63,951 bases of DNA from a virus (Duplodnaviria > Caudoviricetes). Positions within the stretch are counted from its first letter, which is position 1; each line of letters opens with the position of its first letter. Positions 1 through 61,485 of this stretch are shown one piece after another. The stretch spans positions 1 to 63,951 of the IMG/VR virus record IMGVR_UViG_3300020593_000115; one strand, written 5' to 3'. The position numbers and the translations under genes were made by a program. The notes beneath the pieces were generated by a model that saw nothing but the letters and a program-made list of their open reading frames with translations, did no database searches and had not been told where the DNA came from.

Positions 1-1092
1 CTATTTCTGTGAAGCCTCCAGCTTGGCCATGGCCTGATCAGCGAGTTGACCGCGTCCGCCGAGGTAATGGGCATCTAGAATGGAATCCACATCCCGCAGG
101 CTGTGACCCGTGATGGACGCGATTTCGGCATTGTTGCACCCCGCCAGGGCCAGACGCGTAACGGCGGTGCCGCGCAGATCGTGAAACGTCAGCCCTTCTA
201 CACCAGCCTCCTTGACGGCAGCGCGCCACGACGCCCTGAAACCGTCCTCAGTCCACGGGCGTCCTCGCGTGTTGGTCAGAATGGTGCTTGCGATGGGTGC
301 GGATGGATCCTTCTCGCGCCGATCCGCATCCTCCTTGACCTTACGCTTTTTCGACTCTTCGAGCATAAGCCTAAGGGGCTCCCCTACAGGTATGGTCACC
401 CTGGCGCCAGTCTTTCCCTGTCGCAGCCGTAAGCGTTTTCCATCGTAAGTGGACCACAGCGCCTTCAGTAAGTCGCCTTCGCGCTGGCCAGTCCATAGGG
501 CCATCATCAGTGCCATACGGATTGGCCAGCTTGATACGGCGGCGACTGCATCAATATCCTCGTCTCGCCATACCTTGTCGGCGCGATCTGCTTTGTAAAG
601 GCGGCCTCCGCGCTCGCAAACATTCACTGTAATTCGCCCATTGTCCTTAGCGACGGACAAAACACGTGCCAATGTTACCCACGCGTAATCTGCAGTTCGC
701 GGCTTGTCGGCCATGGTGTCGCGCCAACGTTTGAAGTGGCCTCTAGCAGAGGGGTGCTGTAATTCATCAAGGTTCATCAGGGCGATATCGTCTACTTCTA
801 TCAGCCTCAGATAGCGCTCATAACCGCGCCGGGATTTCTCTGACAAAGTTTTGAACTCAGAGGAATCGCGAAATTCGTCTACCAATGTGCGAAGGGTGCC
901 TTCTTTTTTTTTCGATGCGGCGGCACACGCCTCTGCGTATGCCTGCTGAATTCGCGGATCCCCTGGCTGCAACGGCAGCCCATCTGGCGCCTTAAGTAAA
1001 GGGCCGCCCCGCCACGCATAAAGATAGACGCGCTTCTCGCCATTAGCGAGCTTCTTCGTTGCCCTCGCGATACCCTTAAGCACTACGCGCAC
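1..1092 (-). CDS. int: Tyrosine recombinase (phage integrase)
   Basis: Catalytic motifs TGQREGDL, FHDLRGT, ITGH and a C-terminal HY. Confidence 0.95.
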   Translation of the reverse strand: MRVVLKGIARATKKLANGEKRVYLYAWRGGPLLKAPDGLPLQPGDPRIQQAYAEACAAASKKKEGTLRTLVDEFRDSSEFKTLSEKSRRGYERYLRLIEVDDIALMNLDELQHPSARGHFKRWRDTMADKPRTADYAWVTLARVLSVAKDNGRITVNVCERGGRLYKADRADKVWRDEDIDAVAAVSSWPIRMALMMALWTGQREGDLLKALWSTYDGKRLRLRQGKTGARVTIPVGEPLRLMLEESKKRKVKEDADRREKDPSAPIASTILTNTRGRPWTEDGFRASWRAAVKEAGVEGLTFHDLRGTAVTRLALAGCNNAEIASITGHSLRDVDSILDAHYLGGRGQLADQAMAKLEASQK

Positions 1093-1342
1093 GCTCCCTT
1101 AACCTCCTCTGGAATGGTGTGTCCTGCGCCAACTCTGACGCTGAAATACCTTGCTCCAGACCGGAAGCTTTATCAAGCCTAGCATCGATCGCCTTTTTGT
1201 CCCACCTTTTTGACCCGAACAACGGCGCAGGCATGTGACCGGCCTTCACCCATCCGTGGAACGTGGATAGGCTGACACCGCAATATGCGGCCGCCTCTTG
1301 TTTCGATAAGAGGCGCTGGCCATTATCATTATCCGCCTTCAT
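1076..1342 (-). CDS. Excisionase / AlpA-like HTH protein
   Basis: LLSKQEAAAYCGVSLSTFHGWV winged HTH; overlaps the integrase start. Confidence 0.85.
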   Translation of the reverse strand: MKADNDNGQRLLSKQEAAAYCGVSLSTFHGWVKAGHMPAPLFGSKRWDKKAIDARLDKASGLEQGISASELAQDTPFQRRLRERARSA

Positions 1343-1554
1343 TCAACTACCTCCCTGCGCAGGGCTTCGCGACCGGCTGGCGTGATGCGTCCCACCGCTC
1401 CACCACGCGGCAAATCGTAAACGCTGTGAACGAGAGGGGGCTCCATAAGCGCCATCTGGTACATCGCTTGCTTCCGGTCCCTATCTTTGATTGCCGCCAT
1501 CGGATACCGGTCCAGTGTTTCGAGGCAGGCTCGTTGTGCTTCCGTCAGCTTCAT
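1339..1554 (-). CDS. Hypothetical phage protein
   Basis: Coupled leftward operon with stop/start overlaps; start MKLTEAQ. Confidence 0.6.
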   Translation of the reverse strand: MKLTEAQRACLETLDRYPMAAIKDRDRKQAMYQMALMEPPLVHSVYDLPRGGAVGRITPAGREALRREVVE

Positions 1555-1907
1555 TCCTTCCCTCCATTCAGCGGAGAGGCGGTGAGCATGGCGTGGTAAC
1601 ACGCCAATTCGCGGGCGTACTCGTTAGCGAAGCATGCTTCTATGGTTTGGCCGCAAACACCGCTGGTTCTTGTCTTACGCATGGCCTCACGGGCCGCATA
1701 CACCATGTCTTCGCTCGGCTCCTGTAGCGCCTCGTAGATGGTGGAGATGGCGGCGCGGGCGGTATCCTTCGCAAGTTCCTGCGCCGCATATGCTCTGGTC
1801 AACTTGAACTGTTCGGGGCCCTCCAGGCGATAGTGTGCCGGCGTCAGATCGAAAGCCCACGGCGTAACTAGACGCGCCACCGCCTCTACCAGTTCGTCAT
1901 TTGTCAT
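1551..1907 (-). CDS. Hypothetical phage protein
   Basis: Start MTNDEL after an AGGA RBS; coupled with neighbours. Confidence 0.6.
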   Translation of the reverse strand: MTNDELVEAVARLVTPWAFDLTPAHYRLEGPEQFKLTRAYAAQELAKDTARAAISTIYEALQEPSEDMVYAAREAMRKTRTSGVCGQTIEACFANEYARELACYHAMLTASPLNGGKE

Positions 1908-4828: not shown

Positions 4829-5115
4829 GACTGCTCCTTGTCGTAGGTGAGGATGCGTTCAGCAACGGCATTGCACCCATCTCGAAACCGATCAAAATCG
4901 ACGGAATAGCCGCCGATGCGGTCATTCATGAATTTGATGGCATCATGTCCGCATTCTTTTGCTATCTCCGCCGCGCGCTGGTCGCGGGCAAGGAGGGCTC
5001 TCGCGACATCAACGATGTGCTGCGCATCATCTATGCGCGTGCCGCCACTGCAGGATGGCTGGCACAGCTCCCTCGCCTCACGCATGATCTCATCTGGGAT
5101 TTCAGGGGCGGTCAT
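4825..5115 (-). CDS. Hypothetical phage protein
   Basis: Start MTAPEIP overlapping the upstream stop. Confidence 0.55.
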   Translation of the reverse strand: MTAPEIPDEIMREARELCQPSCSGGTRIDDAQHIVDVARALLARDQRAAEIAKECGHDAIKFMNDRIGGYSVDFDRFRDGCNAVAERILTYDKEQS

Positions 5116-5573
5116 GCCGCAGCCCTCCACTCCGGCGCCTTCTCCAGGTCAATCGCGACACGTTCCAGCGCTATGGCTTGCGCGCTGTGGCGCGCTGAGC
5201 CCCTGCGGTTCCGGCGTGCGGCTTCATGGTTCCAGCGAGCGGCATTGCGAAGGACAACGATGTCGCCGGAGGTGGCGACATTGGCGCCGTCCCAAAGTTG
5301 CTCGGCCACGTTGCGTAGTTGCTGCGCGATCACGAACCGCTGCTTAGGCATGTTGCCGCGGCGTGCCAAGGATTCGTGATACTTGGCCACATCAATGATT
5401 TGCTGCCGGGTGATGCCCTGCGCCTCTGCCTGCTCCGCAGAAATAACGTCCTCGCAAAGCGCGGCGGGATGGTTGTCGTTTGCCGTGGGCCGCGGTTCAT
5501 GGCGGCGCGTTTCATTGGTGCGGTTATTACGAGTGCCGTCGTTAAAAGTGCCATCGTTAAATGTGCGTTTCAT
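5112..5573 (-). CDS. Hypothetical protein with an ANDN motif and RAAA C-terminus
   Basis: ATG at 5573 preceded by GAGGAG and a CAC-rich leader. Confidence 0.6.
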   Translation of the reverse strand: MKRTFNDGTFNDGTRNNRTNETRRHEPRPTANDNHPAALCEDVISAEQAEAQGITRQQIIDVAKYHESLARRGNMPKQRFVIAQQLRNVAEQLWDGANVATSGDIVVLRNAARWNHEAARRNRRGSARHSAQAIALERVAIDLEKAPEWRAAA

Positions 5574-5699
5574 AGGTATCTCCTCATGGTGGTGGTAGTG
5601 GTGAATGGTGGTGGTTATGCTACCCATCGCGCGCCATGCAAAGCCCGGTTGGCGTCGACTTGCGACTGTGTGTTGGTGTTGGCCGCTATGCGCTCGCGG

Positions 5700-5774
5700 C
5701 GGCTTGCCGCGCACGAAGTGGGTGCGGTGGTTGATATTGGCAATAGTGCCGTCAAGGTCAAAAATGACCCTCAT
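5700..5774 (-). pseudogene. N-terminal remnant of a HAD/PNK-phosphatase-like gene
   Basis: MRVIFDLDGTIA..HR is HAD motif I (DxDxT) with an RBS; downstream sequence is unrelated. Confidence 0.45.
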
Positions 5775-6619: not shown

Positions 6620-6623
6620 CCGT

Positions 6624-8395: not shown

Positions 8396-8490
8396 CGGGT
8401 GTAGTTAACGAATCGAGCACGGCTTCCGAAGCGCGATCACTTCAAAAAAACACCACAGCGACAAAACCCACCAGCGAGGAGTACCTGGTT

Positions 8491-10705: not shown

Positions 10706-11491
10706 ATGGCTCTTTCACTTTCATCACTGAAATCCAGCAAGACCACCAACCCGCCTATCGTACTGCTTTACGGCGTGGACGGCATTGGCAAAACCAGCCT
10801 TGCGGCGGAGTGGCCCGATCCGCTCTACCTGCCGACGGAAGGGGAGCGTCCGCCGTCTGATGTTGATATCGCCACGCCAGGCACAATTGAAACATTTGGC
10901 TCGCTACTCGACATCTTTGGCGAACTTCTCACCGAGGAACACAACTTCAAGACCGTCATCGTGGACAGCCTCGACGGACTGGAGCCGCTCGTCTGGAGCG
11001 CAACCTGTGCTCGGCTCGGGGTGAACTCTATTGAGGATCCTGGCTATGGGCGGGGGTACGTTGAGGCAGATGCGGAATGGTCGGAATATCTTTCTGCTCT
11101 TGGAGCCTTGGCGCGCGCAGGCATTAACGTGGTCCAGATCGCTCACCCTGAAATCGTGCGCTTCGACAGCCCGGTAACGGATCCATATTCGCGCTACCAA
11201 CCCAAGCTGCACAAACGCGCCAACGCCCTTGTACGGGAGCGCGCCGACGTTGTGGCCTTCCTGAACCGCCGCGTCTCCATCAAGGAGAAGGAGGTTGCGC
11301 GCCAAACGAAGGTCTCACACGCTGAAGGTGGTAAAGAGATTCTGGTTCATCTCAATGAAGCAGCAGGCTTCAACGCAAAGAACCGTTACTCCATGCCAGA
11401 CAGCATCAAGTATGTGAAGGGGCAAGGGTATGCGGACCTGTCGAAGTTCTGGACGGGCGCCAATGACAATCAGCAGAAGGAGGCGGCGTGA
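10706..11491 (+). CDS. AAA_24 / Sak4-like ssDNA-annealing ATPase
   Basis: Walker A GVDGIGKT, Walker B IVDS, AKNRY motif. Confidence 0.88.
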   Translation: MALSLSSLKSSKTTNPPIVLLYGVDGIGKTSLAAEWPDPLYLPTEGERPPSDVDIATPGTIETFGSLLDIFGELLTEEHNFKTVIVDSLDGLEPLVWSATCARLGVNSIEDPGYGRGYVEADAEWSEYLSALGALARAGINVVQIAHPEIVRFDSPVTDPYSRYQPKLHKRANALVRERADVVAFLNRRVSIKEKEVARQTKVSHAEGGKEILVHLNEAAGFNAKNRYSMPDSIKYVKGQGYADLSKFWTGANDNQQKEAA

Positions 11492-11694: not shown

Positions 11695-12252
11695 ATGGCG
11701 CAACTTGGCCAGCGTTTCGATGCAACCGCACACGACACCACGCAGAGCGATTATTCAGAACTTCCGAACGGTATTTATCGGCTTGAAGTCGAAGCCAGCG
11801 ACGTGACGCCCACAAAGGACGGCAAGGGAACCATTCTCAAGACGACCATGGTGGTCGTCGCGCCGGACGAATACGCGAAACGTAAACTGTTCACCAACTA
11901 CAACCTCGAAAACCCGAGCGCCCAAGCGCAGGAAATTGGGCAGCGCCAGTTTGCCGCCCTCTGCCGCGCCATTGGCGTGCATGAGGTGGAGGATTCCGAA
12001 GATCTGCACTTCCGTAGCTTCACGGTTAAGGTAGGCCTCGGCAAACCTTCAAAGGATGGGCAGTATCCGGCTCGCGCTGAGATCAAAAAATACTTCTTCC
12101 CAGATGAGGGCGATCTTCCTGAGCCGGCGATCGATCTGGAGCAGCCTGCGGCCGCTCCACGTCACGCCAACGACAACCGCGCCCCGGCCGCAAATGACAA
12201 TCGTCAGGCTGCACCAGCCGCTGCGGCGACCGGGAAAAAGCGGCCTTGGTAA
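11695..12252 (+). CDS. DUF669 family putative ssDNA-binding protein
   Basis: LPNGIY..., RKLFTNYNL, AQEIGQRQFAALCRAIG; located after the Sak4-like gene. Confidence 0.8.
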   Translation: MAQLGQRFDATAHDTTQSDYSELPNGIYRLEVEASDVTPTKDGKGTILKTTMVVVAPDEYAKRKLFTNYNLENPSAQAQEIGQRQFAALCRAIGVHEVEDSEDLHFRSFTVKVGLGKPSKDGQYPARAEIKKYFFPDEGDLPEPAIDLEQPAAAPRHANDNRAPAANDNRQAAPAAAATGKKRPW

Positions 12253-14559: not shown

Positions 14560-14738
14560 TGAGCAAAGAAGAAAAGAAGTACGTATGGATGGTTGATGTC
14601 AATCGCATGTCTGCGCTGAAGGTCGTCTTCTCTAAGCCGGTGACTAGGGACGAAGCCATAGGCGTATATCTGGACGGGGATTATGATGACATAATTGACG
14701 AGGAAGACCATGGCGTTGAAGTAGTAGGAGCTCACTAA
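14559..14738 (+). CDS. Hypothetical protein
   Basis: Start MSKEEKK with TGATG coupling. Confidence 0.55.
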   Translation: MSKEEKKYVWMVDVNRMSALKVVFSKPVTRDEAIGVYLDGDYDDIIDEEDHGVEVVGAH

Positions 14739-15712
14739 TGGCGCCTCTTCCAAAGCCCCAAGCCTCCACGGTAGGCGCGATTTACCGCGCCTACGAGGCC
14801 CGCAACGAACAGCGAGACGGAAAGACAATTCCTGTCTCGCAACTAGCGGAGGAATGCGCCCGCAAGCTGTTCTATGACTTCCGGTGGATATCGCCCCACG
14901 AAACCATACCTGGCCGCACGCTTCGCATTTTCGAGACAGGCGTCATGGAGGAAAATCGCTGGATTGAAAACCTGCGAATGATCGGATGCGAGGTCGTGGA
15001 CCGCGCACCGGATGGACGTCAAATCCGTGTTGACCTGTGTGGCGGCCATGTCGGCGGCTATCTGGACTGCGAGGTTCTTGGTATTCCAGAGGCGCCTAAG
15101 ACATGGCACGTCGGCGAAATCAAGTCGCACAATCTAAAAAGCTTCACGGATCTTAAGAAGAAGGGGTTGAAAGAAAGCAAACCGCTCCACTACGGGCAGA
15201 TACAGACCTACATGCACGCTCGCGGTCGCGATCGAGGCATCTATCTCGCCGTGTGCAAGGACAATGACGAACTGTATGCGGAGCGAGTCCATCTCGATAC
15301 TGAATACGTTATTCGGCTTCTGGCCAAGGCGGCACGCATTGTTCAATCGCACGAGCCGCCGCCAAAACTGCATGACGATCCCACGGCCAAGATGGCGTTT
15401 GCGTGCGGCTGGTGCAAGCACAAGCCGGTTTGTCACGAAGACGCGTGGCCACGATCGAATTGCCGGACGTGCCTATACAGCAGCCCAGAGGAGGGCGGAA
15501 CGTGGAGTTGCGCCAGGTTCAACAAACCGCTTTCGCTTGATGAGCAGAGGGCGGGATGCCCTGCCCATCTCTACCTCCCCAGCCTGATACCAGGCGAGCA
15601 AATTGATAGCGACGAGGGCGCGGAAACCGTCACCTACAAACTCCGCACCGGCCGGATTTGGATTGATGGCGCGGCGAACGACAACACCCCCACCGAAGAA
15701 GTAGCAGCATGA
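14738..15712 (+). CDS. Cas4-like PD-(D/E)XK exonuclease
   Basis: C..R, GYLD, EIKS, QIQTYM motifs and CGWC/CRTC cysteine clusters. Confidence 0.85.
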   Translation: MAPLPKPQASTVGAIYRAYEARNEQRDGKTIPVSQLAEECARKLFYDFRWISPHETIPGRTLRIFETGVMEENRWIENLRMIGCEVVDRAPDGRQIRVDLCGGHVGGYLDCEVLGIPEAPKTWHVGEIKSHNLKSFTDLKKKGLKESKPLHYGQIQTYMHARGRDRGIYLAVCKDNDELYAERVHLDTEYVIRLLAKAARIVQSHEPPPKLHDDPTAKMAFACGWCKHKPVCHEDAWPRSNCRTCLYSSPEEGGTWSCARFNKPLSLDEQRAGCPAHLYLPSLIPGEQIDSDEGAETVTYKLRTGRIWIDGAANDNTPTEEVAA

Positions 15713-16194
15713 CCACCACACGCATCATCCCACCCAAAGCCGCGAATGATAACACACACCCAGTCCTGCAATGGACGCGTCTGCTGCACAAGGTGGCGCG
15801 ACGTCTAGAGCCGCGAGCACAGGACCGGGAGGATCTGGTGCAGGAGACGATTGCCATGTGCCTTGAGCGTTGGGCGTCGTACAACCCGGCTGAAAGCCTG
15901 CCGGGATGGCTGATTTTCAACATGCGGGAGTGCAGAGCAAACCTGCGCCGACAGGGTAGGGTGCGCACGACCAGCCTTGAGGACTGCTTCAGTCACCCGT
16001 CCGAGCCACCGCGGCAGCATCATACAGCAGAGCTATCGCAGGCCATGGACCGGCTCGGTACCCGCAACGGTTCGTTTCTGCTGCGGTTCGCAATGGGGGA
16101 AAGCACGCCGGACATCGCCGCGGAGACAGGTCTTTCAAAACAGCGGGTGCACCAGATCATAAAGCAGGAACGAAACAAGCTGGAGGCGGCTTGA
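15709..16194 (+). CDS. ECF-like RNA polymerase sigma factor
   Basis: REDLVQET region 2 and IAAETGLSKQRVHQI region 4 HTH. Confidence 0.75.
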   Translation: MTTTRIIPPKAANDNTHPVLQWTRLLHKVARRLEPRAQDREDLVQETIAMCLERWASYNPAESLPGWLIFNMRECRANLRRQGRVRTTSLEDCFSHPSEPPRQHHTAELSQAMDRLGTRNGSFLLRFAMGESTPDIAAETGLSKQRVHQIIKQERNKLEAA

Positions 16195-18948
16195 ATGATA
16201 CAACTTCGCGACTATCAGCGCGCCGCCATTGACGCACTCTATTCGTACTGGGCTGAAAAGCCCGGTTCGCCGCTCATTGTTCTGCCGACCGGATGTCACG
16301 CACCCGGCACCCGAATCCTGATGTATGACGGAACTACGAAGCCTGTAGAGCGGATCGCTGCCAACGACAATGTTATGGGGCCAGACAGTAACCCGCGTCG
16401 CGTGATTAGAACAATATCGGGTCGCGAGATGATGTATCGGGTTACGCCTAAGAAGGGCGACCCGTTTATTGTGAATGAGAATCACATTCTCTCGCTCAAG
16501 ACAACGAGCGAAGGGAAAAAAGCCGACCGATATCCAAACTCCTACCGGCGCGGGGGCGAGATTGTCAATATTAGCGTTGCAGACTACCTGAAAAAATCCA
16601 GGAGTTGGAAGCATCTGCACAAGCTGTGGCGAACCGGCATTGAATTTCGGGAGCCAGCAAATGACAATTTTCCGGTGCCACCATACATCGTTGGCGTGAT
16701 GCTGGGTGACGGTAGCCTGAATTATACGCCAACGCTTACGAACATGGATCCAGAAGTGCTGGACGAGGTATGTGATTATGTTGAAGCGATAGGCGTTGAT
16801 ACCAGAATTGCGCAAAAGCCAAACAATCGCGCATGGCAAGTGTCTTTCCCGGATTCAAAATCGAGCCGTTCCAGCCGCAATCGCTTTGTTGCCAGGCTTG
16901 AAGAAGCCGGATTGTGGGGAATGATCTGCGACAAGAAGGCAATCCCGGTACCATACAAAACTGGCAGTCGCAAGACGCGCCTTGAGGTGCTTGCCGGCCT
17001 TCTGGATACGGACGGACACCTCTCTCGTGGCAATCATTTTGATTTCATATCAAAATCAAATGAGCTTTCGCGAGACGTCGCGTTTGTAGCAAGAAGCCTA
17101 GGCTTGGCCGCATATATCACCGAATGCGAAAAATACTGCCAAACTGGTGGCGGAGGTACATATTGGCGCGTGTCTATATCTGGCGATATAGACATAATAC
17201 CAAATCGTGTTGCTCGTCAGCGGGCGGTCCCACGGCGTCAAAAGAAGAATCCGCTTGTAACTGGGTTTTCTATTGAGCCCGTCGACATTGGAGACTTTTA
17301 CGGCTTTGAACTTGACGGCGACCACCTCTATTTGACCGAAGACTTTACGGTACACCACAACAGCGGGAAGAGCCTTGTTCTCGGCACCGTATGCAAGGAA
17401 CTAATCGAAAACTACCCCGACATGCGGATAGCGGTAGTCACGCACGTCCGGGAGCTAATCCTGTCTAATTATAAGGAACTTCTAAATATCTGGCCATTCG
17501 CTCCTGCAGGTATTTTTTCTGCCGGAGTAGGGCGAAGCGATGCGCATTCCCAGATCATCTTCGGTGGTGTACAAACCATAGCCACCAAGGCTGCACAAAT
17601 TGGGCACATTGACCTTGTCATGGTCGATGAAGCACACCTCATGCCGCGCAACTCTGAGACGCAGTACGGCAGGCTCTTAAGTGGGCTGCGCTCCATCAAT
17701 CCAGATTTAAAGCTGGTCGGATTAACCGCTACCCCTTATCGCCTGGGCGAGGGACTTTTACACGAAGGTGAAGGCGCTCTGTTTGACGATATATGCTTTG
17801 AACAGCCTGTATCAGACATGATTGACAGCGGCTACCTCGTTCGGCCCATCAGCAAGGGTATGGCCACGACATACGATGTGTCGGGGGTAGGGAAGCTTGG
17901 TGGAGACTATAAGCAAAAAGCGCTCCAGGCCGCGGTCGACAAGGAGGATCTTACACGGGCCGTTGTTGACGAAATCGTATCTTATGGGCGCGATCGCAAG
18001 GCGTGGCTTTGCTTCTGCTCCGGAGTTGAGCACGCCTACCACATGCGTGACGAAATTCGTAGCCGCGGCTTTTCGTGCGAAACCATTGATGGAACAACGC
18101 CAACTGCGGAGCGAGACAGAATTTTAGAAGACTTCAAGGCGGGACGATTGCGGGCCGTCACAAACAACAGCGTGATGACGACCGGAACCAATGTGCCCAT
18201 CATCGATCTGGTGGCGTTTTGCCGGCCAACGCAGTCCCCTGGATTGTACATCCAAATGGCCGGTCGCGGTCTGCGGCTTTATCCAGGTAAAGAGAATTGC
18301 CTTTTCCTTGACTTTGCCGGTGTCGTGCGGAAGCACGGTCCAATCGACGCCGTCATTCCGCCTAACGCGCGCAGCGGGACAGGAGACGCGCCCGTCAAGC
18401 AGTGCCCGCAGGAATCTGGTGGTTGCGGCTCGTTGGTGCACGCATCTGCACACCAGTGCCCGGACTGCGGATACGAATTTCCGATAGATGACGCGCCGAA
18501 AATCAAGGGGACGGCAGAAGACGTGCCAATGCTGTCAAAAGGCGACGCAAGTTGGCGCAGCGTCAGCAGCCGCCGCTTTGACTATCACGAGGGGAAGAAC
18601 GGCAAGCCGCCCAGCCTGAAGGTTAGCTATATGGTCGGGCTTACCGCAATGCGGGAATGGCTGTGCTTTGAGCACAGCGGTTACGCGCAGAGCAAGGCGC
18701 ATCGCTGGTGGGCGAAGCACGGCGGCGAGCGTCCATTCCCGCGCACGATACTTGAGGCGCTGGAGCGCCAACGTGAGCTTATCGAGACGGCCGAGATTAG
18801 CGTGCGGCCGAGCGGCAAATATTGGGAGATTGTCGACCACAAGGTCGGCACCGAGCGCGCGGCGAATGACAACGACATGCCGGCGGATAATGATAACTAC
18901 GATTCACCTGGATTGAGAGAGGTTCTTGACGATGACATCCCGTTCTAG
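16195..18948 (+). CDS. SF2 DEAH helicase (RadD/YejH-like) interrupted by an intein
   Basis: LRDYQ, PTG/SGKS, DEAH, GLTAT, QMAGRGLR and a C-terminal Zn finger. Confidence 0.93.
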   Translation: MIQLRDYQRAAIDALYSYWAEKPGSPLIVLPTGCHAPGTRILMYDGTTKPVERIAANDNVMGPDSNPRRVIRTISGREMMYRVTPKKGDPFIVNENHILSLKTTSEGKKADRYPNSYRRGGEIVNISVADYLKKSRSWKHLHKLWRTGIEFREPANDNFPVPPYIVGVMLGDGSLNYTPTLTNMDPEVLDEVCDYVEAIGVDTRIAQKPNNRAWQVSFPDSKSSRSSRNRFVARLEEAGLWGMICDKKAIPVPYKTGSRKTRLEVLAGLLDTDGHLSRGNHFDFISKSNELSRDVAFVARSLGLAAYITECEKYCQTGGGGTYWRVSISGDIDIIPNRVARQRAVPRRQKKNPLVTGFSIEPVDIGDFYGFELDGDHLYLTEDFTVHHNSGKSLVLGTVCKELIENYPDMRIAVVTHVRELILSNYKELLNIWPFAPAGIFSAGVGRSDAHSQIIFGGVQTIATKAAQIGHIDLVMVDEAHLMPRNSETQYGRLLSGLRSINPDLKLVGLTATPYRLGEGLLHEGEGALFDDICFEQPVSDMIDSGYLVRPISKGMATTYDVSGVGKLGGDYKQKALQAAVDKEDLTRAVVDEIVSYGRDRKAWLCFCSGVEHAYHMRDEIRSRGFSCETIDGTTPTAERDRILEDFKAGRLRAVTNNSVMTTGTNVPIIDLVAFCRPTQSPGLYIQMAGRGLRLYPGKENCLFLDFAGVVRKHGPIDAVIPPNARSGTGDAPVKQCPQESGGCGSLVHASAHQCPDCGYEFPIDDAPKIKGTAEDVPMLSKGDASWRSVSSRRFDYHEGKNGKPPSLKVSYMVGLTAMREWLCFEHSGYAQSKAHRWWAKHGGERPFPRTILEALERQRELIETAEISVRPSGKYWEIVDHKVGTERAANDNDMPADNDNYDSPGLREVLDDDIPF
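16294..17361 (+). mobile_element. Intein with LAGLIDADG homing endonuclease (356 aa)
   Basis: Starts C-HAPGT, ends HHN with +1 Ser; splits Walker A; LGDG and LAGLLDTDG motifs. Confidence 0.95.
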
Positions 18949-21017: not shown

Positions 21018-21621
21018 TTGATTGCGAGTGTCCCGTATGCGGCACCGCGTTCAAGGTTTGGCCGTCGCGGCTAAAGCACGGTCGTGGAATTCATTGCTCA
21101 AAAGAGTGTCAGTCAATCGCCCAGCGCGGAAAGATGGAAAAGCCAAAGGTCAATCTGGTTTGCATCGGCTGTGGTGTTGAGTTTGAGAGAAGCCCAAGTC
21201 AGTTAAGGGCAGTGGGTGCGGGAAAATTCTGCACTCGTGAGTGTCGCGACGAACACTGGAATGGTGAACTTAACCCGAATTGGCAGGACGGAAGTGGCGT
21301 CTATAAGCGCGGCCCGCATTGGTATTCAATCCGGCGGGGCATCCTAAAGCGCGACAATCACGAGTGCCAGGAGTGTGGTGCTAAAGAAGATTTGCACGTG
21401 CATCATAAATCCCGTTTCGCATGTTTGACGATGCAGACGAGGCCAATCACGAAGACAACCTAATCACCCTTTGCCCGCCATGTCACCGCAAGGAGGACGC
21501 GCGGCACAAGTGGGTAAGGGTTTGCGGTTCAATCATCAGGATGAATGCCGGGAGCTATGCGTGGGGGTTGGCGCGCAGAATGATGGCTAACGATAACACG
21601 AAACAGAAGGTGGCGACATGA
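21008..21621 (+). pseudogene. HNH endonuclease with Zn-finger repeats, frameshifted near 21408
   Basis: CQECG..LHVHHK in one frame continues as IPFRMF..NLITLCPPCH in the next. Confidence 0.75.
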
Positions 21622-23102
21622 CCGACCAAATATTTCTTGACGGCAACGTGACACTCAAAGCCGGCGATTGCCTTGATGTTCTAAAGTCTTTGCCAGACTG
21701 CTCGATAGAGTCGTGCGTCACTGATCCACCATACCATCTGACCAGCATTGTAAAGCGGTTTGGGAGCACCGGTGCCGCGCCTGCGCAGTTCGGAACTGAT
21801 GGCGCTTTTGCGCGAGCCTCGCGCGGATTCATGGGGCGCGTTTGGGATGGCGGCGACATAGCATTCCGCGTTGAGTTGTGGGCAGAGGTTTGGCGCGTGC
21901 TTAAGCCGGGTGGCTGGCTGGCCGCGTTCTCGGCAACCCGCACATACCATCGAATGGCAGTAGCCATCGAGGATGCTGGCTTTGAAATCCGCGACGATAT
22001 CCTGAACATGGTTGCGACAGACAGCGCTGCAATGCGTTTCATTGAGTCGTTGTCACCAGCACAGGCCGAAGCATTCTTCAAGTTGATGGAGGAATCACAG
22101 TTCGGGGGCATGGCCGCGTGGACCTACGGTTCCGGCTTTCCGAAATCGCACGATGTGTCGAAAGCTATAGATAAGCATCTTGGGGCGGTGAGAGAAAAGG
22201 TGCGAGTCACCAATGTGCGCAACCCCAAAGCTGCTGGTGGTGGCAAGGATGGCGCGGAAGGCGCAACCCGACCTTGGCTGGATGCTGCCCTTGAGCGCGG
22301 CTACCATGAGAAGGATGGCGACACTGCTGCCACTCCGCAGGCTGCGGAGTGGCAGGGATTCGGCACAGCGCTGAAGCCTGCTTGGGAGCCGATCTGCTTA
22401 GCGCGCAAACCGCTCATTGGCACCGTTGCCGAAAACGTTTTGGAGCACGGCACAGGCGCGCTGAATATTGATGGGTGTCGGGTGGAGGCTCCGGAAGGAA
22501 AGACGCCAGGCGGGCGCGGTGCAAGTTGCGGCGCGGTCGGGTGGCAACCGTCCTCTGGTTTTGACATCAACGACGGCAAGGGCCGCTGGCCCGCCAACAT
22601 CGTGCACGACGGCAGCGACGAGGTGGTGGCGTGTTTTCCTGAGACCACCAGTGGAGGCGGGGATCGCAACGGCGCGCAAAAGGGGGACGTTTTTCATGGC
22701 GTAGGCGACACCGGCGTGCCCCGCATATTTGAGGCTAACTCCGGATCCGCCGCCCGCTTCTTCTACAGCGCCAAGGCCGACAAGAACGACCGGCTTGGCA
22801 GCAAGCACCCAACGGTCAAGCCTGTCGACCTGATGCAGTGGCTGGTGCGGCTCGTCACACCTCCCAAAGGCCTCGTGCTTGATCCATTCGCCGGCAGTGG
22901 CAGCACGGGCGAAGCGGCATGGCGGGAAGGGATGCGGTGCATCCTAATCGAGCGCGAGGAAGAATACCAGGCGGACATTGCGCGCCGCATGGAGCTTGCC
23001 AATGCCGGGCCGACGACGCGCAAAGCGGCAGCGGTGCGGAAGCCTGCGAATGACAACGACTTGCCGTTGTTCGGTTCACCCGCACAGGAAGGTGCCGCAT
23101 GA
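21618..23102 (+). CDS. N6-adenine/N4-cytosine DNA methyltransferase (beta class)
   Basis: DPPY, HPTVKP, LDPFAGSGST. Confidence 0.93.
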   Translation: MTDQIFLDGNVTLKAGDCLDVLKSLPDCSIESCVTDPPYHLTSIVKRFGSTGAAPAQFGTDGAFARASRGFMGRVWDGGDIAFRVELWAEVWRVLKPGGWLAAFSATRTYHRMAVAIEDAGFEIRDDILNMVATDSAAMRFIESLSPAQAEAFFKLMEESQFGGMAAWTYGSGFPKSHDVSKAIDKHLGAVREKVRVTNVRNPKAAGGGKDGAEGATRPWLDAALERGYHEKDGDTAATPQAAEWQGFGTALKPAWEPICLARKPLIGTVAENVLEHGTGALNIDGCRVEAPEGKTPGGRGASCGAVGWQPSSGFDINDGKGRWPANIVHDGSDEVVACFPETTSGGGDRNGAQKGDVFHGVGDTGVPRIFEANSGSAARFFYSAKADKNDRLGSKHPTVKPVDLMQWLVRLVTPPKGLVLDPFAGSGSTGEAAWREGMRCILIEREEEYQADIARRMELANAGPTTRKAAAVRKPANDNDLPLFGSPAQEGAA

Positions 23103-23458
23103 CCGCCATTGCACACGAGCCGACCGTCGCGCCAAACGGCGACCCTACCACCTGTTGGTGCTGTGGCCGGCATGCCGTTTCGCTTGGCGTCGGCAATCCT
23201 GGCAAAGGCGACCCGCGCTATCTGTGCGCCGAATGCATTCCGTTGCTGGAATACATCAAGGACGTTCGCCGATGGGACGCATACGAGCAGAAAGCGCTTG
23301 AGTTTGTCGACGAAGCAACCGGCGAATACGCGGCACAGCACGGCACCGACATTGCTGAGTACGACGAACCCACAAGGCGCGGGCTGTGGCGAACCGCTAT
23401 CCAAGCCCATCAGGACGGTATTCGGCGACTGGTTACGGATGGAGAGGCGCCTTGGTGA
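23099..23458 (+). CDS. Hypothetical Zn-finger protein
   Basis: CWCC...CAEC; coupled between two methyltransferase genes. Confidence 0.6.
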   Translation: MTAIAHEPTVAPNGDPTTCWCCGRHAVSLGVGNPGKGDPRYLCAECIPLLEYIKDVRRWDAYEQKALEFVDEATGEYAAQHGTDIAEYDEPTRRGLWRTAIQAHQDGIRRLVTDGEAPW

Positions 23459-25662
23459 TCGATTCTATGAACGACAACACCCGCCCGCTCCGCTTTCTTT
23501 CAGTGTGCAGCGGCATCGAGGCGGCGTCTGTCGCCTGGAAACCGCTTGGGTGGAAGGCGGTAGGCTTCGCGGAGATCGAGAAATTCCCGTCAGCCGTGCT
23601 GGCGCATCACTACCCCGACGTGCCGAACCTGGGGGACATGACCAAGTATAAGGAGTGGCCTGACTTTCATATTGACCTGCTGTGTGGCGGGACGCCATGC
23701 CAAGCGTTCTCTGTCGCTGGTCTGCGGGAAGGGCTCAACGACCCGCGAGGTAATCTGACACTGACTTTTCTTGGTATCGCAGAAAAGTATCAGCCAGAGT
23801 GGATCGTTTGGGAAAATGTACCTGGAATCTTGAGTGACAAAACAGGGGCGCTTGTCTCGTTCTTGGATGGACTAGAGGCGCTCGGTTATGTCGTTGACAT
23901 TGATATACTTGATGCGCAGTTCTTCGGGCTGGCACAGAGGCGCAGGCGAGTTATTGTATGTGGGCAAAACATAAAACATATTCTCAAGAAGAAGACGATT
24001 TCATCCGCGCTAACTATAGTGCAATTTCTACAGGAGATATCGCTCTCCACCTTGGAAGAACTTACGACTCCGTCGACAAGCGCGCAACCAGGCTCGGGCT
24101 CAAACGCAATAAGTGCCGCCCATTCACGCCAGAGGAAGATGAGGTTATTCGGGCTGCTTCCGGGCGGAGTAGTGTCGACGTCGGCAGGCAGCTTGGCCGA
24201 GCACCTGCAGTGGTTAGAACAAGAGCTAAACGGCTTGGCCTCGGCGGATGGTTCGCGTTTTCAGGGGGCTACAAGCCACTTAGGGGGTATAGAACCGCCT
24301 ACATCGCCGCCAACGATAATGGATCTCCGAGAAGGGTGTCAGAGCACCGAGCCATCATGGCTGAACATATTGGCCGCCCCCTTACAGATGATGAGCGAGT
24401 CCACCACATCAACTGCGTCAAAAGCGATAACAGAATCGAAAATCTATACCTGTGCGCAAATGACGCTGTGCATCGCAAGGCTCATGCATCAGTCAATGGA
24501 CTCATCGCCGGTCTTCTGGAGCGCGGCGCAATCTTCTTTGATCGCACTGAAGGGGTTTATAAATTATGCGAGACAGACAAGTAGCGACCTTTTTGCAGGG
24601 ATGGAATGGGTTCGTTCGTGGAACGATTTCATCGAACAAGCCGTACCAGTTGCAGAGGTTGTCGGAAGTCTTAGTGTCGAAAGCGCCGGAGAGGTTCTTT
24701 CTATCCGCGACTGCATGTCGTGGGATTATCCGGCGCGCCGAGAAGCGCGGAAAGACGTTGCCCCCACAATTAGCGCACGCACTAAAGGCGGTGGCGGACT
24801 CGGAACCGACTTCGACCTAGATGGTGGGTTGGTGCAACAGGCAGTAGACGTTGCACCGACAATGCGCGCCGGCGGTAACGCCACTGGTGGAGACAGGCCA
24901 TACGGTACGGATGTTGATACGGCGGACAGTTTGGTGGCGTATGCACCCGAAATAGCGCGTTGCGACGCAACGCGCGAAGGTTCGTCGCAGGACTATGAAA
25001 CAACGACGATGGTTGCCCATGCCATTCAGGCCGGCGCGCTGAGAGAAAATCCGAACAGCGGCCCGGACGGTGTAGGCGTGCAGGAAGGCATCGCCTATAC
25101 GCTTGAGGCGCGAGCAGAGGTGCAGGCGGTGGCATTCCAGTCAAGCCAAAGCGGCGTTCGTATAGGCGATGTGCACGCCACGCTGGACAGCAATAACGGA
25201 TCGCGTCGCCACAATGGCGTTCTGTGCTTCTCCGCCAAAGACTACGGTGCCGACGCACAGGAGGGCATCTCGCCGACGCTCCGCGCAGGCGGTCATGCCG
25301 ACAGCCACGCAAATGCAGGTGTGATGCCGGCGGTGGCGTTCAATGCGCGACAAGACCCAATACACGGTACTATCGCACAACCGCTGGGCGCAAAGGATAA
25401 CGGCAACGGCGTGCTAGTGCACTCCGCCGTCCGTCGCCTCACGCCGCGCGAATGCGAGCGCCTGCAGGGCTTTCCGGATGACTACACGAATATTCCGTGG
25501 CGCGGCAAGCCAACCGCGCCAGACGGGCCGCGTTACAAGGCGCTTGGCAATAGCTGGGCTGTGCCGAAATTCCGCTGGCTCGGTGAACGCATCAACCGAC
25601 TAATGCCGCAAGAGGCCGCCAACGACAACACCACCAACAAGGATACCAGCCTTGCAGCTTAA
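23455..25662 (+). CDS. C5-cytosine DNA methyltransferase with a large internal insertion
   Basis: SVCSGI, GTPCQAFS, WENVPG, QRRRRV, RRLTPRECERLQGFPD, YKALGNS. Confidence 0.92.
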   Translation: MIDSMNDNTRPLRFLSVCSGIEAASVAWKPLGWKAVGFAEIEKFPSAVLAHHYPDVPNLGDMTKYKEWPDFHIDLLCGGTPCQAFSVAGLREGLNDPRGNLTLTFLGIAEKYQPEWIVWENVPGILSDKTGALVSFLDGLEALGYVVDIDILDAQFFGLAQRRRRVIVCGQNIKHILKKKTISSALTIVQFLQEISLSTLEELTTPSTSAQPGSGSNAISAAHSRQRKMRLFGLLPGGVVSTSAGSLAEHLQWLEQELNGLASADGSRFQGATSHLGGIEPPTSPPTIMDLREGCQSTEPSWLNILAAPLQMMSESTTSTASKAITESKIYTCAQMTLCIARLMHQSMDSSPVFWSAAQSSLIALKGFINYARQTSSDLFAGMEWVRSWNDFIEQAVPVAEVVGSLSVESAGEVLSIRDCMSWDYPARREARKDVAPTISARTKGGGGLGTDFDLDGGLVQQAVDVAPTMRAGGNATGGDRPYGTDVDTADSLVAYAPEIARCDATREGSSQDYETTTMVAHAIQAGALRENPNSGPDGVGVQEGIAYTLEARAEVQAVAFQSSQSGVRIGDVHATLDSNNGSRRHNGVLCFSAKDYGADAQEGISPTLRAGGHADSHANAGVMPAVAFNARQDPIHGTIAQPLGAKDNGNGVLVHSAVRRLTPRECERLQGFPDDYTNIPWRGKPTAPDGPRYKALGNSWAVPKFRWLGERINRLMPQEAANDNTTNKDTSLAA
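23958..24584 (+). CDS. HNH homing endonuclease nested out of frame in the C5 MTase
   Basis: Two Myb-like repeats (YSQEEDDFIR, FTPEEDEVIR) and EHRAIM..VHHINCVKSDNRIENL..H. Confidence 0.85.
   Translation: MWAKHKTYSQEEDDFIRANYSAISTGDIALHLGRTYDSVDKRATRLGLKRNKCRPFTPEEDEVIRAASGRSSVDVGRQLGRAPAVVRTRAKRLGLGGWFAFSGGYKPLRGYRTAYIAANDNGSPRRVSEHRAIMAEHIGRPLTDDERVHHINCVKSDNRIENLYLCANDAVHRKAHASVNGLIAGLLERGAIFFDRTEGVYKLCETDK
24566..24820 (+). CDS. Alternative-frame MTase beta-subunit-like peptide
   Basis: LSEVL..PERFFLSATACRGIIRRAEKRGKTLP; ATG preceded by GAAGGGG. Confidence 0.55.
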   Translation: MRDRQVATFLQGWNGFVRGTISSNKPYQLQRLSEVLVSKAPERFFLSATACRGIIRRAEKRGKTLPPQLAHALKAVADSEPTST

Positions 25663-30137: not shown

Positions 30138-30224
30138 CTCCGGACACAAGTGCGCAAGTGCGCAAGTGCCTATAGTACTTGCGCATACTTGTGCGCGCGC
30201 AAGTGAAGATAGAGCGACTTGCGC
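30093..30224. repeat. GCGCAAGT iteron array, probable replication origin
   Basis: 7 direct copies (30093, 30105, 30116, 30127, 30152, 30160, 30197) and 2 inverted (30177, 30217). Confidence 0.75.
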
Positions 30225-30265
30225 AATACGTCAGCGATATTGACATAATTTTGGAAGTCACCACC

Positions 30266-42328: not shown

Positions 42329-42745
42329 ATCGATCCGGTCCTTGAGCTTCAGGGCGCAATCGTAGCGCGCCTGAAGGCATTTCCGCTCGTTACAGATTTG
42401 GTGGCACAGCGGACATATGACATGCCGCCAGCGAACGATAATGGCGAAGTAGCACCAGCGACATTTCCGTACATCAGTATTGGTACAGCATCTGACAGCG
42501 CTGAAAACTATGACTGCATCTATGGCCACGACATCATTTTTCAGATCGATGCATGGTCGTTGTATCCGGGCTACGCCGAGGTGCGACGCATAGCAAATGC
42601 GATCGTCCTGGCGTTCCGTGAACATGACTTCTCGCTGATGGAAAACGCGCTCGTGACGTTTGAGCACTGGCGCACTGATTACATGCGGGACGGCGACGTC
42701 AGCCACGCCTCGGTGCGGTTCACCGCCTGGATTGAGCAGCCGTAG
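42329..42745 (+). CDS. DUF3168 tail terminator (non-canonical or mutated start)
   Basis: DPVLELQGAIVARLK..RTYD..FPYISIG..QIDAWS. Confidence 0.8.
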   Translation: MDPVLELQGAIVARLKAFPLVTDLVAQRTYDMPPANDNGEVAPATFPYISIGTASDSAENYDCIYGHDIIFQIDAWSLYPGYAEVRRIANAIVLAFREHDFSLMENALVTFEHWRTDYMRDGDVSHASVRFTAWIEQP

Positions 42746-57157: not shown

Positions 57158-57390
57158 TTTACCCACCTGGTGGATTTCTTCGATCCACACCCCGTTTTCG
57201 AATGATGCTCTTGCGCGTGCGACTAGCGCAGAACTTGTTCTTTTTGCTGATTTTGCCGATCTACAGATGGAGGCGCATTGGCGCTGAGGTGCGCGCGCAG
57301 TCAAAACGAAAGGCGACCTTACGCACCGCGTCAGGACGTCGAAAAATAAAACCATTACTGATGTAAGACATGCTAACCCCCGGCGTCTGC

Positions 57391-59373: not shown

Positions 59374-59466
59374 ATGTCACTTACCGTCGTTGTGGCGCTA
59401 GCTGCGCTGCTGGCAATTCTGACGCCATTAGCGTCTTTGGCAATTGATGCTCTGAGGAGAGGTTGA
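59374..59466 (+). CDS. 30-aa hydrophobic peptide
   Basis: MSLTVVVALAALLAILTPLASLAIDALRRG with AGGAG RBS; TGATG-coupled to the next ORF. Confidence 0.55.
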   Translation: MSLTVVVALAALLAILTPLASLAIDALRRG

Positions 59467-59693
59467 TGGGAAAGTTTAAGATTGGGGGTAGGGTTCGCTG
59501 CCTTTTGGATGATGACATTCCTTCTGAGCGTCAGTGGGGAATCGACGCGGGGCTAGCGTGGCGCAGGGTGGCTGGGGATAGCGTAGTTTATACGGACTTA
59601 GGCATTTCGCGTGGCATGGAATATGGAATTGCGGCAGCAAGGGGCGCTGGCATTCCAGTGGAATATCGCAGCCTTGAGGAGAATGGCAACTAA
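59466..59693 (+). CDS. Hypothetical protein (possible deletion fusion)
   Basis: FKIGGRVRC start joined to a VYTDLGISRGMEYGI domain half. Confidence 0.5.
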   Translation: MGKFKIGGRVRCLLDDDIPSERQWGIDAGLAWRRVAGDSVVYTDLGISRGMEYGIAAARGAGIPVEYRSLEENGN

Positions 59694-60955
59694 TGCCAAC
59701 ACCTACGATTACAGATGAACAAATCGCGCGCACCGTAGAGGTTCGCGCGCGCCATAGATTCAACACGCAGGCCGCAGCAGAACTTGGCGTAGACGAAAAG
59801 ACGGTGCGCCGTCATCTGGCGCTTGCGGCAGAGCGCGGCTTGCTCGGCACGGATCCTGTGCTGCCGGGATACGCGATCAAGAGCGTCGCCAGCAAGACGC
59901 CTGATGGCGCGTGGGTGAAGCAGACGAAGGAGCACGGCGCCCCATTTGAGGTTCCGGCTGGCCATGCCGTGAAAGGCGTCTCTGCTCTTGTCGACGCGGA
60001 AGGAAGAACGATACAGCAATGGGTGAAGACTCGAGAGCAGCCGTCTGCAATCGATGTTGCCGAGACGCTGAAGGCCGCCTTTGAAAACTGGGAGCCCGCA
60101 GCGCCAGCGGTCGTCGCGCCCTCCGCCACCGATACGGATTTGCTGAGCCTCATTCCGTGCAACGACTGGCACGTCGGCATGTTTGCATGGTCTCGAGAAA
60201 CAGACCAGAACTGGGACCTGAAAATTGCGGAAAGGGTGATTGGCGCAGCTGTCGAGGGCGCCATAGCGCGCTCCCCTTCTTGCCACACTGCGATTGTTCT
60301 TGGTGGCGGCGATCTGACTCACGCCGACAACAACGACAACCGCACCAAACGCTCTGGCAACGTTCTCGATGTAGACGGGAGGCACCAGAAGGTTGTCGAG
60401 AAAGCGGGCGAACTTATGGCCCGTACAGTGGACGCCGCACTACGTAGACACAGCCGAGTAATAGTGCGCAATCTGAAGGGGAACCACGACGACGAGACGG
60501 CGCCGGCGATTGCTTGGTTTCTCAAGGCTTGGTACCGGCACGAGCCGCGGGTGTACGTGGATTTGGATCAGTCGCTGTTTTTCTATCATCAGCACGGCTT
60601 GGTGATGAATGCGGCGACGCACGGTCACGCTGCGAAGCTCAAGGACATGCCACAGATCATGGCGCACCGGCGTCCCGAGATGTGGGGCTCCACGCGCTTT
60701 CGTTACGCCCATGGATTCCACGTTCATCACAAATCAGGGTTCGTAACAGAGGGAGGCGGCGTGGTGTGCGAGTCTCACCAAGCGCCCATACCGCAAGACG
60801 CGTGGCATTACGGAGCGGGATTCCTATCAGGTCGCTCAATCCAAACCATCAGCTACCACAAGAGTTATGGAGAGATTGGTCGCGTGCGTGAGGCCGTACT
60901 TGATGGCGGCCACGTTGCAGCGAACGACAATGAGTCTATGAGGGCGGCGGCATGA
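59693..60955 (+). CDS. HTH plus calcineurin-like metallophosphoesterase
   Basis: AAELGVDEKTVRRHL HTH; DWH, GD, GNHD, HGH and HVH metal motifs. Confidence 0.8.
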   Translation: MPTPTITDEQIARTVEVRARHRFNTQAAAELGVDEKTVRRHLALAAERGLLGTDPVLPGYAIKSVASKTPDGAWVKQTKEHGAPFEVPAGHAVKGVSALVDAEGRTIQQWVKTREQPSAIDVAETLKAAFENWEPAAPAVVAPSATDTDLLSLIPCNDWHVGMFAWSRETDQNWDLKIAERVIGAAVEGAIARSPSCHTAIVLGGGDLTHADNNDNRTKRSGNVLDVDGRHQKVVEKAGELMARTVDAALRRHSRVIVRNLKGNHDDETAPAIAWFLKAWYRHEPRVYVDLDQSLFFYHQHGLVMNAATHGHAAKLKDMPQIMAHRRPEMWGSTRFRYAHGFHVHHKSGFVTEGGGVVCESHQAPIPQDAWHYGAGFLSGRSIQTISYHKSYGEIGRVREAVLDGGHVAANDNESMRAAA

Positions 60956-61485
60956 AGGTAACGGCTGGTAGACTTAAGCAATGGCTTCACTATGACCCAG
61001 AGACGGGAGTGTTCACCTGGATAAAGAAGGCGGGACGCAATCTGCCGGGATCGATTGCGGGAACTCTTCGGGATGACGGATACATCCGCATCCAAGTTGA
61101 GGGTGAACGGCGCTACGCGTCACACTGGGCATGGCTTTATATGACCGGATTCCTTCCAGAGAATGAAGTGGACCATGAGGACAGGAACAGGGCTAACAAC
61201 GCTTGGAGCAATCTTAGAGCGGCGACGAAGTCGCAGAATTGCGCCAACCGTCCGCAGAGTGGCAGAAGGGCGAGCGGACTCCCGAGAGGTGTTGCTGTAA
61301 GGGGCAAAAAGTTTGTGTCTCAAATCCGGGTTCGCGGCGTTCCAAGGTATTTAGGAATTTACGACACGCCAGAAGAGGCACACGAGGCATACGCGCAAGT
61401 AGCGTCGTTAGAGTTTGGTGAATTCGCAACCGCAAAGCGGCAGGCCGCGAACGACAACAACAGGAAAGAGGAGAGGACGGCGTGA
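60952..61485 (+). CDS. HNH-AP2 homing endonuclease
   Basis: YDPETGVFTW, VDHEDRNRANNAWSNLR, YLGIYDTPEEAHEAY. Confidence 0.9.
   Translation: MKVTAGRLKQWLHYDPETGVFTWIKKAGRNLPGSIAGTLRDDGYIRIQVEGERRYASHWAWLYMTGFLPENEVDHEDRNRANNAWSNLRAATKSQNCANRPQSGRRASGLPRGVAVRGKKFVSQIRVRGVPRYLGIYDTPEEAHEAYAQVASLEFGEFATAKRQAANDNNRKEERTA

Follow-up and report, generated by a model that had tools for sequence, protein, structure and literature searches.

In alphaproteobacteria, transfer-messenger RNA (tmRNA) carries alanine, so the head of the native ssrA tag reads AANDN, and the tag closes with a free Ala-Ala. Among natural clients of the adaptor SspB that are not ssrA-tagged, a fragment of Escherichia coli RseA has an SspB site that is not known to copy the tag head, and Flynn et al. 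(2003), mentioned in PMC8138137, reportedly distinguished five classes of ClpX signal, including the C-motif 1 substrates. As described in PMC9963277 for E. coli, SspB binds the tag at its first seven residues and ClpX at the last four, with a lowered KM and a raised Vmax, and in Caulobacter, according to PMC9393093, an ssrA-tagged protein was degraded too fast for viability until sspB was deleted. The closest phage example is mycobacteriophage BPs, for which PMC4557955 describes ssrA-like C-terminal tags on the repressor and the integrase within a system of integration-dependent immunity. Here we describe gene-encoded copies of the ANDN tag head and of the Ala-Ala end in the complete IMG/VR provirus record IMGVR_UViG_3300020593_000115 (63,951 bases, 57% G+C; “the window” hereafter, meaning the whole stretch of DNA analyzed). 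This temperate phage has Rhizobium-type hosts and is a relative of Rhizobium phage 16-3. Judging from sequence comparison, these copies probably tie the lifetime of 16 phage proteins, most of them acting on DNA, to the host SspB-ClpXP system.

Like the native alphaproteobacterial tag, the phage copies combine the (A)ANDN head and a free Ala-Ala at a similar head-to-end spacing. Unlike the native tag, all 19 heads and their tails are encoded in open reading frames (ORFs) ahead of ordinary stop codons instead of being added by trans-translation, and neither ARAGORN nor the alpha_tmRNA model detected a tmRNA or tRNA gene in the window. The middle of the phage tails is also unrelated to that of the tag, with proline in place of alanine two residues past the head and a charged residue before the Ala-Ala; many phage heads are N-terminal or internal, and many tails carry a second docking motif. 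The putative SspB-binding head is identical in sequence to the head of the host tags, and the tails share the free Ala-Ala of C-motif 1 but not the hydrophobic residue before it. E. coli SspB and C-motif 1 clients can similarly be delivered to ClpXP by a cell-encoded SspB-binding stretch or an ssrA-like C-terminus; those are single host proteins, whereas here the tag head is copied many times across one viral proteome. The likeness to BPs is that of a temperate phage encoding a C-terminal ssrA-like degradation tag that destabilizes, or in our case would destabilize, its own protein. The BPs tags described in PMC4557955 are however found on one or two regulators, are exclusively C-terminal, and are removed by integration, whereas the window encodes 16 mostly enzymatic carriers of a putative adaptor-binding head, with or without an Ala-Ala end, and its repressor and integrase are untagged. 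Single phage proteins with ssrA-like ends are already known, and what would be new is a temperate phage family in which much of the non-structural proteome is wired to the host tag-reading machinery. Among the papers listed by literature searches, judged by title and abstract, none deals with ANDN heads in phages or with tag copies across a phage proteome, and none links phage 16-3 with ssrA.

Over-representation of ANDN and Ala-Ala in the phage proteome

Six-frame translation of the window yielded 19 ANDN tetrapeptides, 18 on the plus strand and one on the minus strand, every one of them in the coding frame of one of 16 ORFs and none in a non-coding frame. This reproduces the count of 19 copies in 16 proteins given by a first-pass annotation made from the sequence alone. 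Within our own mechanical gene calls (102 genes, 19,986 amino acids), ANDN was observed 17 times against 0.18 expected from composition (Poisson 7e-28, ~90-fold), in line with the earlier estimate of well under one expected copy, and 300 per-protein shuffles averaged 0.20 copies, with at most 2 in any of them. The shorter NDN (27 observed vs 1.56 expected) and the longer AANDN (9 vs 0.02) behave alike, and the window proteome has no 3-, 4-, or 5-mer more over-represented than NDN, ANDN, and AANDN, respectively. The variants that had been listed alongside the exact motif were all recovered in the gene calls (ADNDN 2, INDN 1, AANDT 1, SNDN 1, DNDN 4). C-terminal Ala-Ala is likewise frequent, ending 18 of the 102 window proteins where 1.4 would be expected.

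The distribution of ANDN along the window is uneven. The virion module (27 genes, 6967 amino acids) holds a single exact copy, as the first-pass annotation had noted, which lies in the tail completion protein gp17, and the non-virion remainder (75 genes, 13,019 amino acids) holds 16, with two more missed through our start choices (binomial p = 0.006). The earlier description of a tagged “early proteome” is broadly accurate in that 18 of the 19 sites lie outside of the virion module, and too broad in that the repressor, integrase, Prim-Pol, and clamp have neither an exact ANDN nor an Ala-Ala end. As to gene boundaries, the minus-strand carrier has the extent given in Table 1 and not the start at 5573 first proposed, while the start first proposed for gp17 is preferable to our own call, with a Pfam match that begins at residue 10.

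Selection on the peptide

The DNA underlying these sites is diverse. The 19 window sites are encoded by 15 distinct 12-mers, and all 32 possible synonymous versions of ANDN are used across the phage family. Flanking sequences (30 bases on each side) have a mean identity of 0.28, i.e. at random level, with a maximum of 0.48 that comes from an overlapping pair, and nucleotide information is restricted to codon positions 1 and 2 of the four ANDN codons and the preceding Ala/Pro codon. Given 15 codon versions and no common flanking DNA, selection must have acted on the peptide, as had been proposed from the varied codons. A DNA repeat or mobile cassette was considered and rejected, since the flanks share no similarity and the copies are found in coding frame only.

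Conservation across a phage family and in phage 16-3

The closest relatives of the window phage (71% Prim-Pol identity) were found in Ahrensia and Roseobacter metagenome-assembled genomes, and many further ones in Brucella/Ochrobactrum, Agrobacterium, and Rhizobium genomes, in which this family is common as prophages. ANDN was detected in 112 of the 117 loci examined around Prim-Pol relatives, with 675 copies on the gene strand vs 3 on the other strand, and was absent from the five most distant loci of this set. Family-wide, the motif is 138-fold enriched over composition. Variants with D, S, V, or E at position 1 are still 14-59-fold enriched, and changes at the N, D, or N of the motif bring the enrichment to 6-fold or less. 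The residue preceding the head is A in 47% and P in 32% of the family contexts. These comparisons show a head of the form [A/P]-A-N-D-N with a strict N-D-N core, and an end consisting of a free C-terminal Ala-Ala.

Alignments of orthologues indicate that the heads are conserved while the remaining tail varies freely. The helicase tail keeps a head or its NDN core in 71 of 74 orthologous ORFs, the N6 methylase keeps its head in 18 of 19, and the C5 methylase in 13 of 15. For the C5 methylase, the tail alignment comprises 13 tails chosen from 19 BLAST matches, and the invariance of ANDN in that alignment is hence due to selection of the rows: it omits four matches without an exact ANDN (one with none, and one each with ANDD, ANDS, and ANDV) along with two near-duplicates. 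The figure of 13 of 15 is free of this bias. Of 42 ORFs orthologous to the 207-aa protein, 36 have ANDN (8) or another xNDN (28), and the head of the 243-aa protein is kept in 18 of 24 orthologues. For the HNH_3 ORF nested within the C5 methylase gene, the sole orthologue found does not keep the head.

A cultured relative, phage 16-3 of Sinorhizobium meliloti (NC_011103), bears the same feature, with 18 ANDN copies by six-frame translation. Its early operon is syntenic with that of the window (Sak4-like protein, clamp, HNH, Cas4 exonuclease, sigma factors, helicase, methylases, and Prim-Pol), and ANDN tails are found on its Cas4 exonuclease, helicase, two methylases, and DNA repair exonuclease. 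Phage 16-3 differs in its Prim-Pol, which is 52% identical over just 40% of the protein, and in further copies that fall, by coordinates only, in the portal tail and the tape measure.

Tag-like geometry

Five window proteins end in a complete tag-like tail in which the head is followed by Ala-Ala, all found as first quoted: GANDNQQKEAA, AANDNTPTEEVAA, AANDNTTNKDTSLAA, PANDNDLPLFGSPAQEGAA, and AANDNESMRAAA. Within the window, an Ala-Ala end is present on 8 of 16 ANDN proteins vs 10 of 87 others (p = 0.001). The same coupling is seen in the relatives, where 135 of 241 ANDN tails end in Ala-Ala vs 272 of 1806 other ORFs, i.e. an odds ratio of 7.2 on rows that are phylogenetically non-independent. 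For this analysis and for the host contrast below, ORF sets were derived mechanically, spurious ORFs included, with the same rule applied to host and phage. Among 504 unique family contexts, ANDN lies 7-10 residues before the stop in 152, its most frequent placement, compared to 8-9 residues in native tags. Ala-Ala ends depend on this distance, being present on 65-80% of the tails with a head-to-stop spacing of 6-9 residues and on few of those with 14-17 residues, most of which appear to be helicase-type tails with an IPF end.

The tag and its adaptor in host genomes

An alpha-type tmRNA was identified in all five hosts of related prophages searched, with tags that begin with ANDN and end with AA (ANDNYAEARLAA twice, ANDNNAKEYALAA, ANDNKAQGYALAA, and ANDNRAPMAMAA); the assumption that the host tag starts with ANDN is thus borne out for these five hosts. 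A tag starting with ANNN instead of ANDN was read from the tmRNA of Rubellimicrobium roseum. SspB (PF04386) was found in all four hosts searched, each time with a conserved ...SLDSFRK-type C-terminal end, and in three of these four the sspB and tmRNA genes are no more than a few hundred bases apart. More broadly, 38 of 41 sampled alphaproteobacteria have a PF04386 match, a tally that includes one unpublished genome on which none of the other results depends. A phage-encoded SspB was considered and rejected, as PF04386 has no match in the window.

The motif is strongly enriched in phage compared to host DNA, which answers the question of host background raised with the first count. When GCN AAY GAY AAY was searched as a coding pattern in host genomes, with hits reported for four of them, 20 of the 49 matches in a 5.5-Mb Agrobacterium genome fell within a ~57 kb prophage, and prophages also accounted for at least 19 of the 34 matches in Rhizobium, 10 of the 37 in Brucella, and 10 of the 32 in Ahrensia. 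In 400 kb of Ahrensia chromosome off the prophage, no ANDN was found in 219,191 amino acids (ORFs of at least 150 amino acids). Under the same rule, ORFs ending in Ala-Ala represent 2.7% of the Ahrensia chromosome set vs 16.2% in the window and 17.8% in relatives. Each host genome also has 13-29 further pattern matches outside of the studied prophage, one of which is the tmRNA gene, and some of these form small clusters, e.g. G003:C10:185250 and 185397, or G003:C27:13147 and 16977. Such clusters could represent other mobile elements or host SspB clients.

Accessibility and modeled binding of the heads

Eleven of the 19 window sites are within ~30 residues of a terminus, and the flanks of the motif are Pro-rich. 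The invariant stretch DWDG-x-AANDN of the 243-aa protein was modeled as a coil between two helices, with a predicted local distance difference test (pLDDT) score under 50, and this conserved, apparently unstructured stretch resembles a docking motif. With ESMFold2 we also folded together the substrate-binding domain of SspB, using an alignment of 31 rows, and the 40 C-terminal residues of the C5 methylase, using one of 14 rows. Alignment A1 omits one row with a TGA within the match and one from an unpublished genome. This fold scored 0.42 vs 0.00 for the best of three controls, a verdict of “weak support”, with at least 60% of contacts agreeing across runs and a partner pLDDT of at least 45. 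Of 80 solved complexes, 58 reach the mark used, as do 2 of 110 mismatched pairs; with a score of 0.60 or under, just 7 of these 80 reach it, along with both of the mismatched pairs that passed. Relatives of this SspB have solved structures (2qaz, 2qas, and 2nys), one of which presumably holds a tag peptide, so that the model may owe this pass to a similar complex that it had memorized. The modeled contact shifts the odds only a little.

Clearance and timing of phage proteins as the favored explanation

The native-like spacing, the coupling of head to Ala-Ala, the presence of SspB in hosts, and the weak pass of the SspB-tail fold all support the earlier suggestion that both halves of the tag are mimicked. 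In this view, the phage family would have copied the two invariant parts of the alphaproteobacterial ssrA tag into one protein after another, each time as a short unstructured stretch. The head would dock on the substrate-binding domain of host SspB, whose own tail tethers it to ClpX, and with an Ala-Ala end ~6-10 (or 13) residues further, ClpX would engage the carrier and ClpP destroy it. Nucleases, homing endonucleases, the three DNA methylases, the helicase, recombination proteins, and the sigma factor would in this way be kept short-lived or at low levels, with leaky products cleared in the lysogen and early functions turned over during lytic growth. Heads without an Ala-Ala end (N-terminal, internal, or on other tails) may serve as adaptor tethers only, aiding weaker degrons or occupying SspB. 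The carriers are plausibly the proteins that a lysogen can least afford to leak, namely three HNH endonucleases, the intein endonuclease, two exonucleases, three methylases, the helicase, and the sigma factor. Because carriers of this kind would be harmful if leaked, and because the repressor, integrase, Prim-Pol, and clamp are untagged, we favor clearance and timing as the likely role of the putative link to SspB-ClpXP.

Several observations weigh against this explanation. A full head with a nearby Ala-Ala end exists at only 5 of the 19 window sites; three more carriers have a distant head along with an Ala-Ala end, and eight have no Ala-Ala end. Two residues past the head, 38% of the family contexts have Pro, compared to Ala in 8 of 8 host tags. 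The residue before the terminal Ala-Ala, tallied over 407 family cases, is most often R (76), E (52), K (51), V (39), A (37), or D (35) and is L in 18, where native tags have L (7) or M (1), and with a charged residue in place of L or M, engagement by ClpX may be weak. Many tails also hold a second motif, clamp-binding-like QxDLF or DDEIPF, and these tails are modular, not copied tags. The ANDN of gp17 may be a chance or recent copy, NDN being absent at this site from the three homologues found via records of relatives. Four of the five hosts of the ANDN-free distant relatives have both SspB and an alpha tmRNA, and the tags read in three of these hosts start with ANDN, ANDN, and ANNN (the R. 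roseum tag above). The host system alone therefore does not impose the trait, and host determinism as a simple rule is rejected; by its distribution, the trait is one of the phage family rather than of its hosts. Finally, the SspB-tail fold reached no more than “weak support”.

Alternatively, heads and tails could mainly occupy SspB and ClpXP rather than remove their carriers, with a burst of phage protein saturating adaptor and protease and stabilizing phage regulators, host cell-cycle factors, or abortive-infection antitoxins. Proteolytic queueing at ClpXP has been established in engineered circuits, as described in PMC12013620. Furthermore, 11 of the 19 sites are in proteins lacking Ala-Ala or far from the C-terminus and could bind SspB undegraded, and some proteins have multiple heads (two in the DUF669 protein, three plus ADNDN in the helicase). 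A pure decoy, however, needs no tight coupling of head and Ala-Ala at near-native spacing, which suits a real substrate, and the carriers are enzymes in many different amounts, with no single abundant sponge protein evident. We consider this use of the copies unlikely, and rank it behind clearance and timing but ahead of a reader other than SspB. In the latter case, ANDN would be a short linear motif for another hub that gathers replication, recombination, and methylation enzymes, such as the phage sliding clamp, an SSB-type protein, or another phage or host factor, and its likeness to the tmRNA tag would be convergent. The phage does encode its own beta clamp (Table 1), the carriers are typical clamp or SSB clients, their tails also bear clamp-binding-like and SSB-tip-like motifs, and heads are found at N-termini and in linkers, where the logic of a C-terminal degron fails. 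Yet the host tag has this very motif as its invariant head, coupling to a free Ala-Ala at near-native spacing is not expected of a hub motif, and the tails in question already hold known clamp motifs of their own, all of which make another reader quite unlikely. An absence of function, whether as a by-product of composition, a DNA repeat or mobile cassette, or pieces of ssrA genes captured by recombination, could account for an occasional chance copy such as the non-conserved one in gp17. It is hardly credible for the motif as a whole, given the ~90-fold (window) and 138-fold (family) enrichments, the restriction of all copies to coding frames with every synonymous version used and dissimilar flanks, and the retention of the motif in orthologues whose surrounding tails diverge.

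Clearance and queueing might also be combined, with the tag copies acting as a proteome-wide protease-queue switch, a scheme that we regard as improbable. Trace amounts of nucleases, methylases, and sigma factor would be erased by SspB-ClpXP in the lysogen; upon induction, a flood of carriers would saturate adaptor and protease, such that all carriers are stabilized at once in a sharp, threshold-like commitment. As a side effect benefiting the phage, host ClpXP substrates (cell-cycle regulators and labile abortive-infection antitoxins) would be stabilized as well, and tails with a clamp or SSB-type motif would escape destruction for as long as they are docked and undergo it once free.

If the favored link between tag copies and protein lifetime is true, it would constitute a new level of control over phage genes, acting through how long their products last. 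The family data would in addition represent a natural mutational scan of the putative reading by the adaptor, with an N-D-N core, a tolerant position 1, and 6-10 residues to the Ala-Ala. The idea is directly testable, because phage 16-3 is in culture.

Gene layout and carrier proteins

The integrase and CI-like repressor genes are followed by a long rightward operon, which encodes the Sak4-like AAA_24 ATPase, DUF669 protein, phage beta clamp, Cas4-domain exonuclease, sigma factor, and intein-bearing helicase and, further on, Gam, HNH endonucleases, three DNA methylases, and Prim-Pol (Table 1). Virion genes, a GtrB-like moron, an endolysin, the DNA repair exonuclease, and another HNH come after this early operon. 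A window-wide Rfam search at gathering scores gave no match.

Table 1. Carriers of ANDN heads in the window, with the integrase, repressor, and clamp genes for reference
Feature	Coordinates	Strand	ANDN position(s)	Tail, end, or remark
Integrase	1-1092	-		Left arm of window
220-aa protein, function unassigned, no family found	5112..5774	-	5472-5483 (residue 98, internal)	Ends ...WRAAA
CI-like repressor	7571-8221	-		Left arm of window
AAA_24 (Sak4-like) recombination ATPase	10706..11491	+	11459-11470	Complete tail GANDNQQKEAA
DUF669 protein	11695..12252	+	12166-12177; 12190-12201	Both heads in C-terminal tail; ends ...GKKRPW, not AA
Phage-encoded beta clamp	13271-14308			
Cas4-domain exonuclease	14738..15712	+	15674-15685	Complete tail AANDNTPTEEVAA
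Sigma-70-like factor	15709..16194	+	15742-15753 (residues 12-15)	Head near N-terminus; ends ...KLEAA
DEAD/SNF2-type helicase split by Hint + LAGLIDADG intein	16195..18948	+	16360-16371 and 16657-16668 (intein); 18862-18873 (C-terminal tail)	Tail also has ADNDN; terminus DDDIPF
66-aa HNH endonuclease	21421..21621	+	21586-21597	Tail MANDNTKQKVAT; no AA end
N6/N4 DNA methyltransferase	21618..23102	+	23046-23057	Tail PANDNDLPLFGSPAQEGAA
C-5 cytosine DNA methyltransferase	23455..25662	+	25618-25629	Complete tail AANDNTTNKDTSLAA
HNH_3 homing-endonuclease ORF	23958..24584	+	24309-24320 (internal)	Other frame, nested in insertion of C5 methylase gene
Dam-family adenine methyltransferase	28585..29622	+	28630-28641 (residues 16-19)	Head near N-terminus
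207-aa protein (phrog_824)	30179..30802	+	30773-30784	Tail AANDNPFEKK; no AA end
243-aa protein, orthologue of 16-3 p107	31227..31958	+	31380-31391 (residues 52-55)	Ends ...KDLAA
Tail completion protein gp17	42329..42745	+	42431-42442 (internal)	
DNA repair exonuclease (phrog_704)	59693..60955	+	60920-60931	Complete tail AANDNESMRAAA
HNH_3 endonuclease	60952..61485	+	61447-61458	Tail AANDNNRKEERTA; no AA end

Additional features were observed in and around several of these carriers. Compared to its orthologues, the C5 methylase has a 245-codon insertion (residues 169-413), which harbors the HNH_3 ORF in another frame. The methylase frame is open through the insertion, and its translation there resembles no known domain. 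A group I intron around this insertion was considered and rejected, as Rfam gave no match with E values of up to 1 allowed.

An Ala-Ala terminus was also seen on ten proteins that have no ANDN, including two virion-module proteins and the GtrB-like glycosyltransferase moron (6194-6607(-), 6870-7193(-), 8353-8739, 8963-9208, 9208-10122, 12328-13173, 19278-19412, 34876-36135, 38911-39399, and 55316-57190(-)). An Ala-Ala end by itself may act as a weaker, adaptor-independent degron.

The N6/N4 methylase tail (23046-23099) has a clamp-binding-like DLPLF between its ANDN head and its Ala-Ala end, and the orthologous tails read Q-x-[DS]-L-F-G-x-A-A; as a speculation, docking of this tail on the clamp could mask the nearby Ala-Ala end. 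The helicase terminus, which we take to be of the same sequence type as the C-terminal tip of SSB, is replaced by DDEIPF or DDDVPF in orthologues. The basic tip of the DUF669 protein also recurs, with relatives and the 16-3 protein p078 (41062-41685) ending in similar ...RPW or ...NPW tips.

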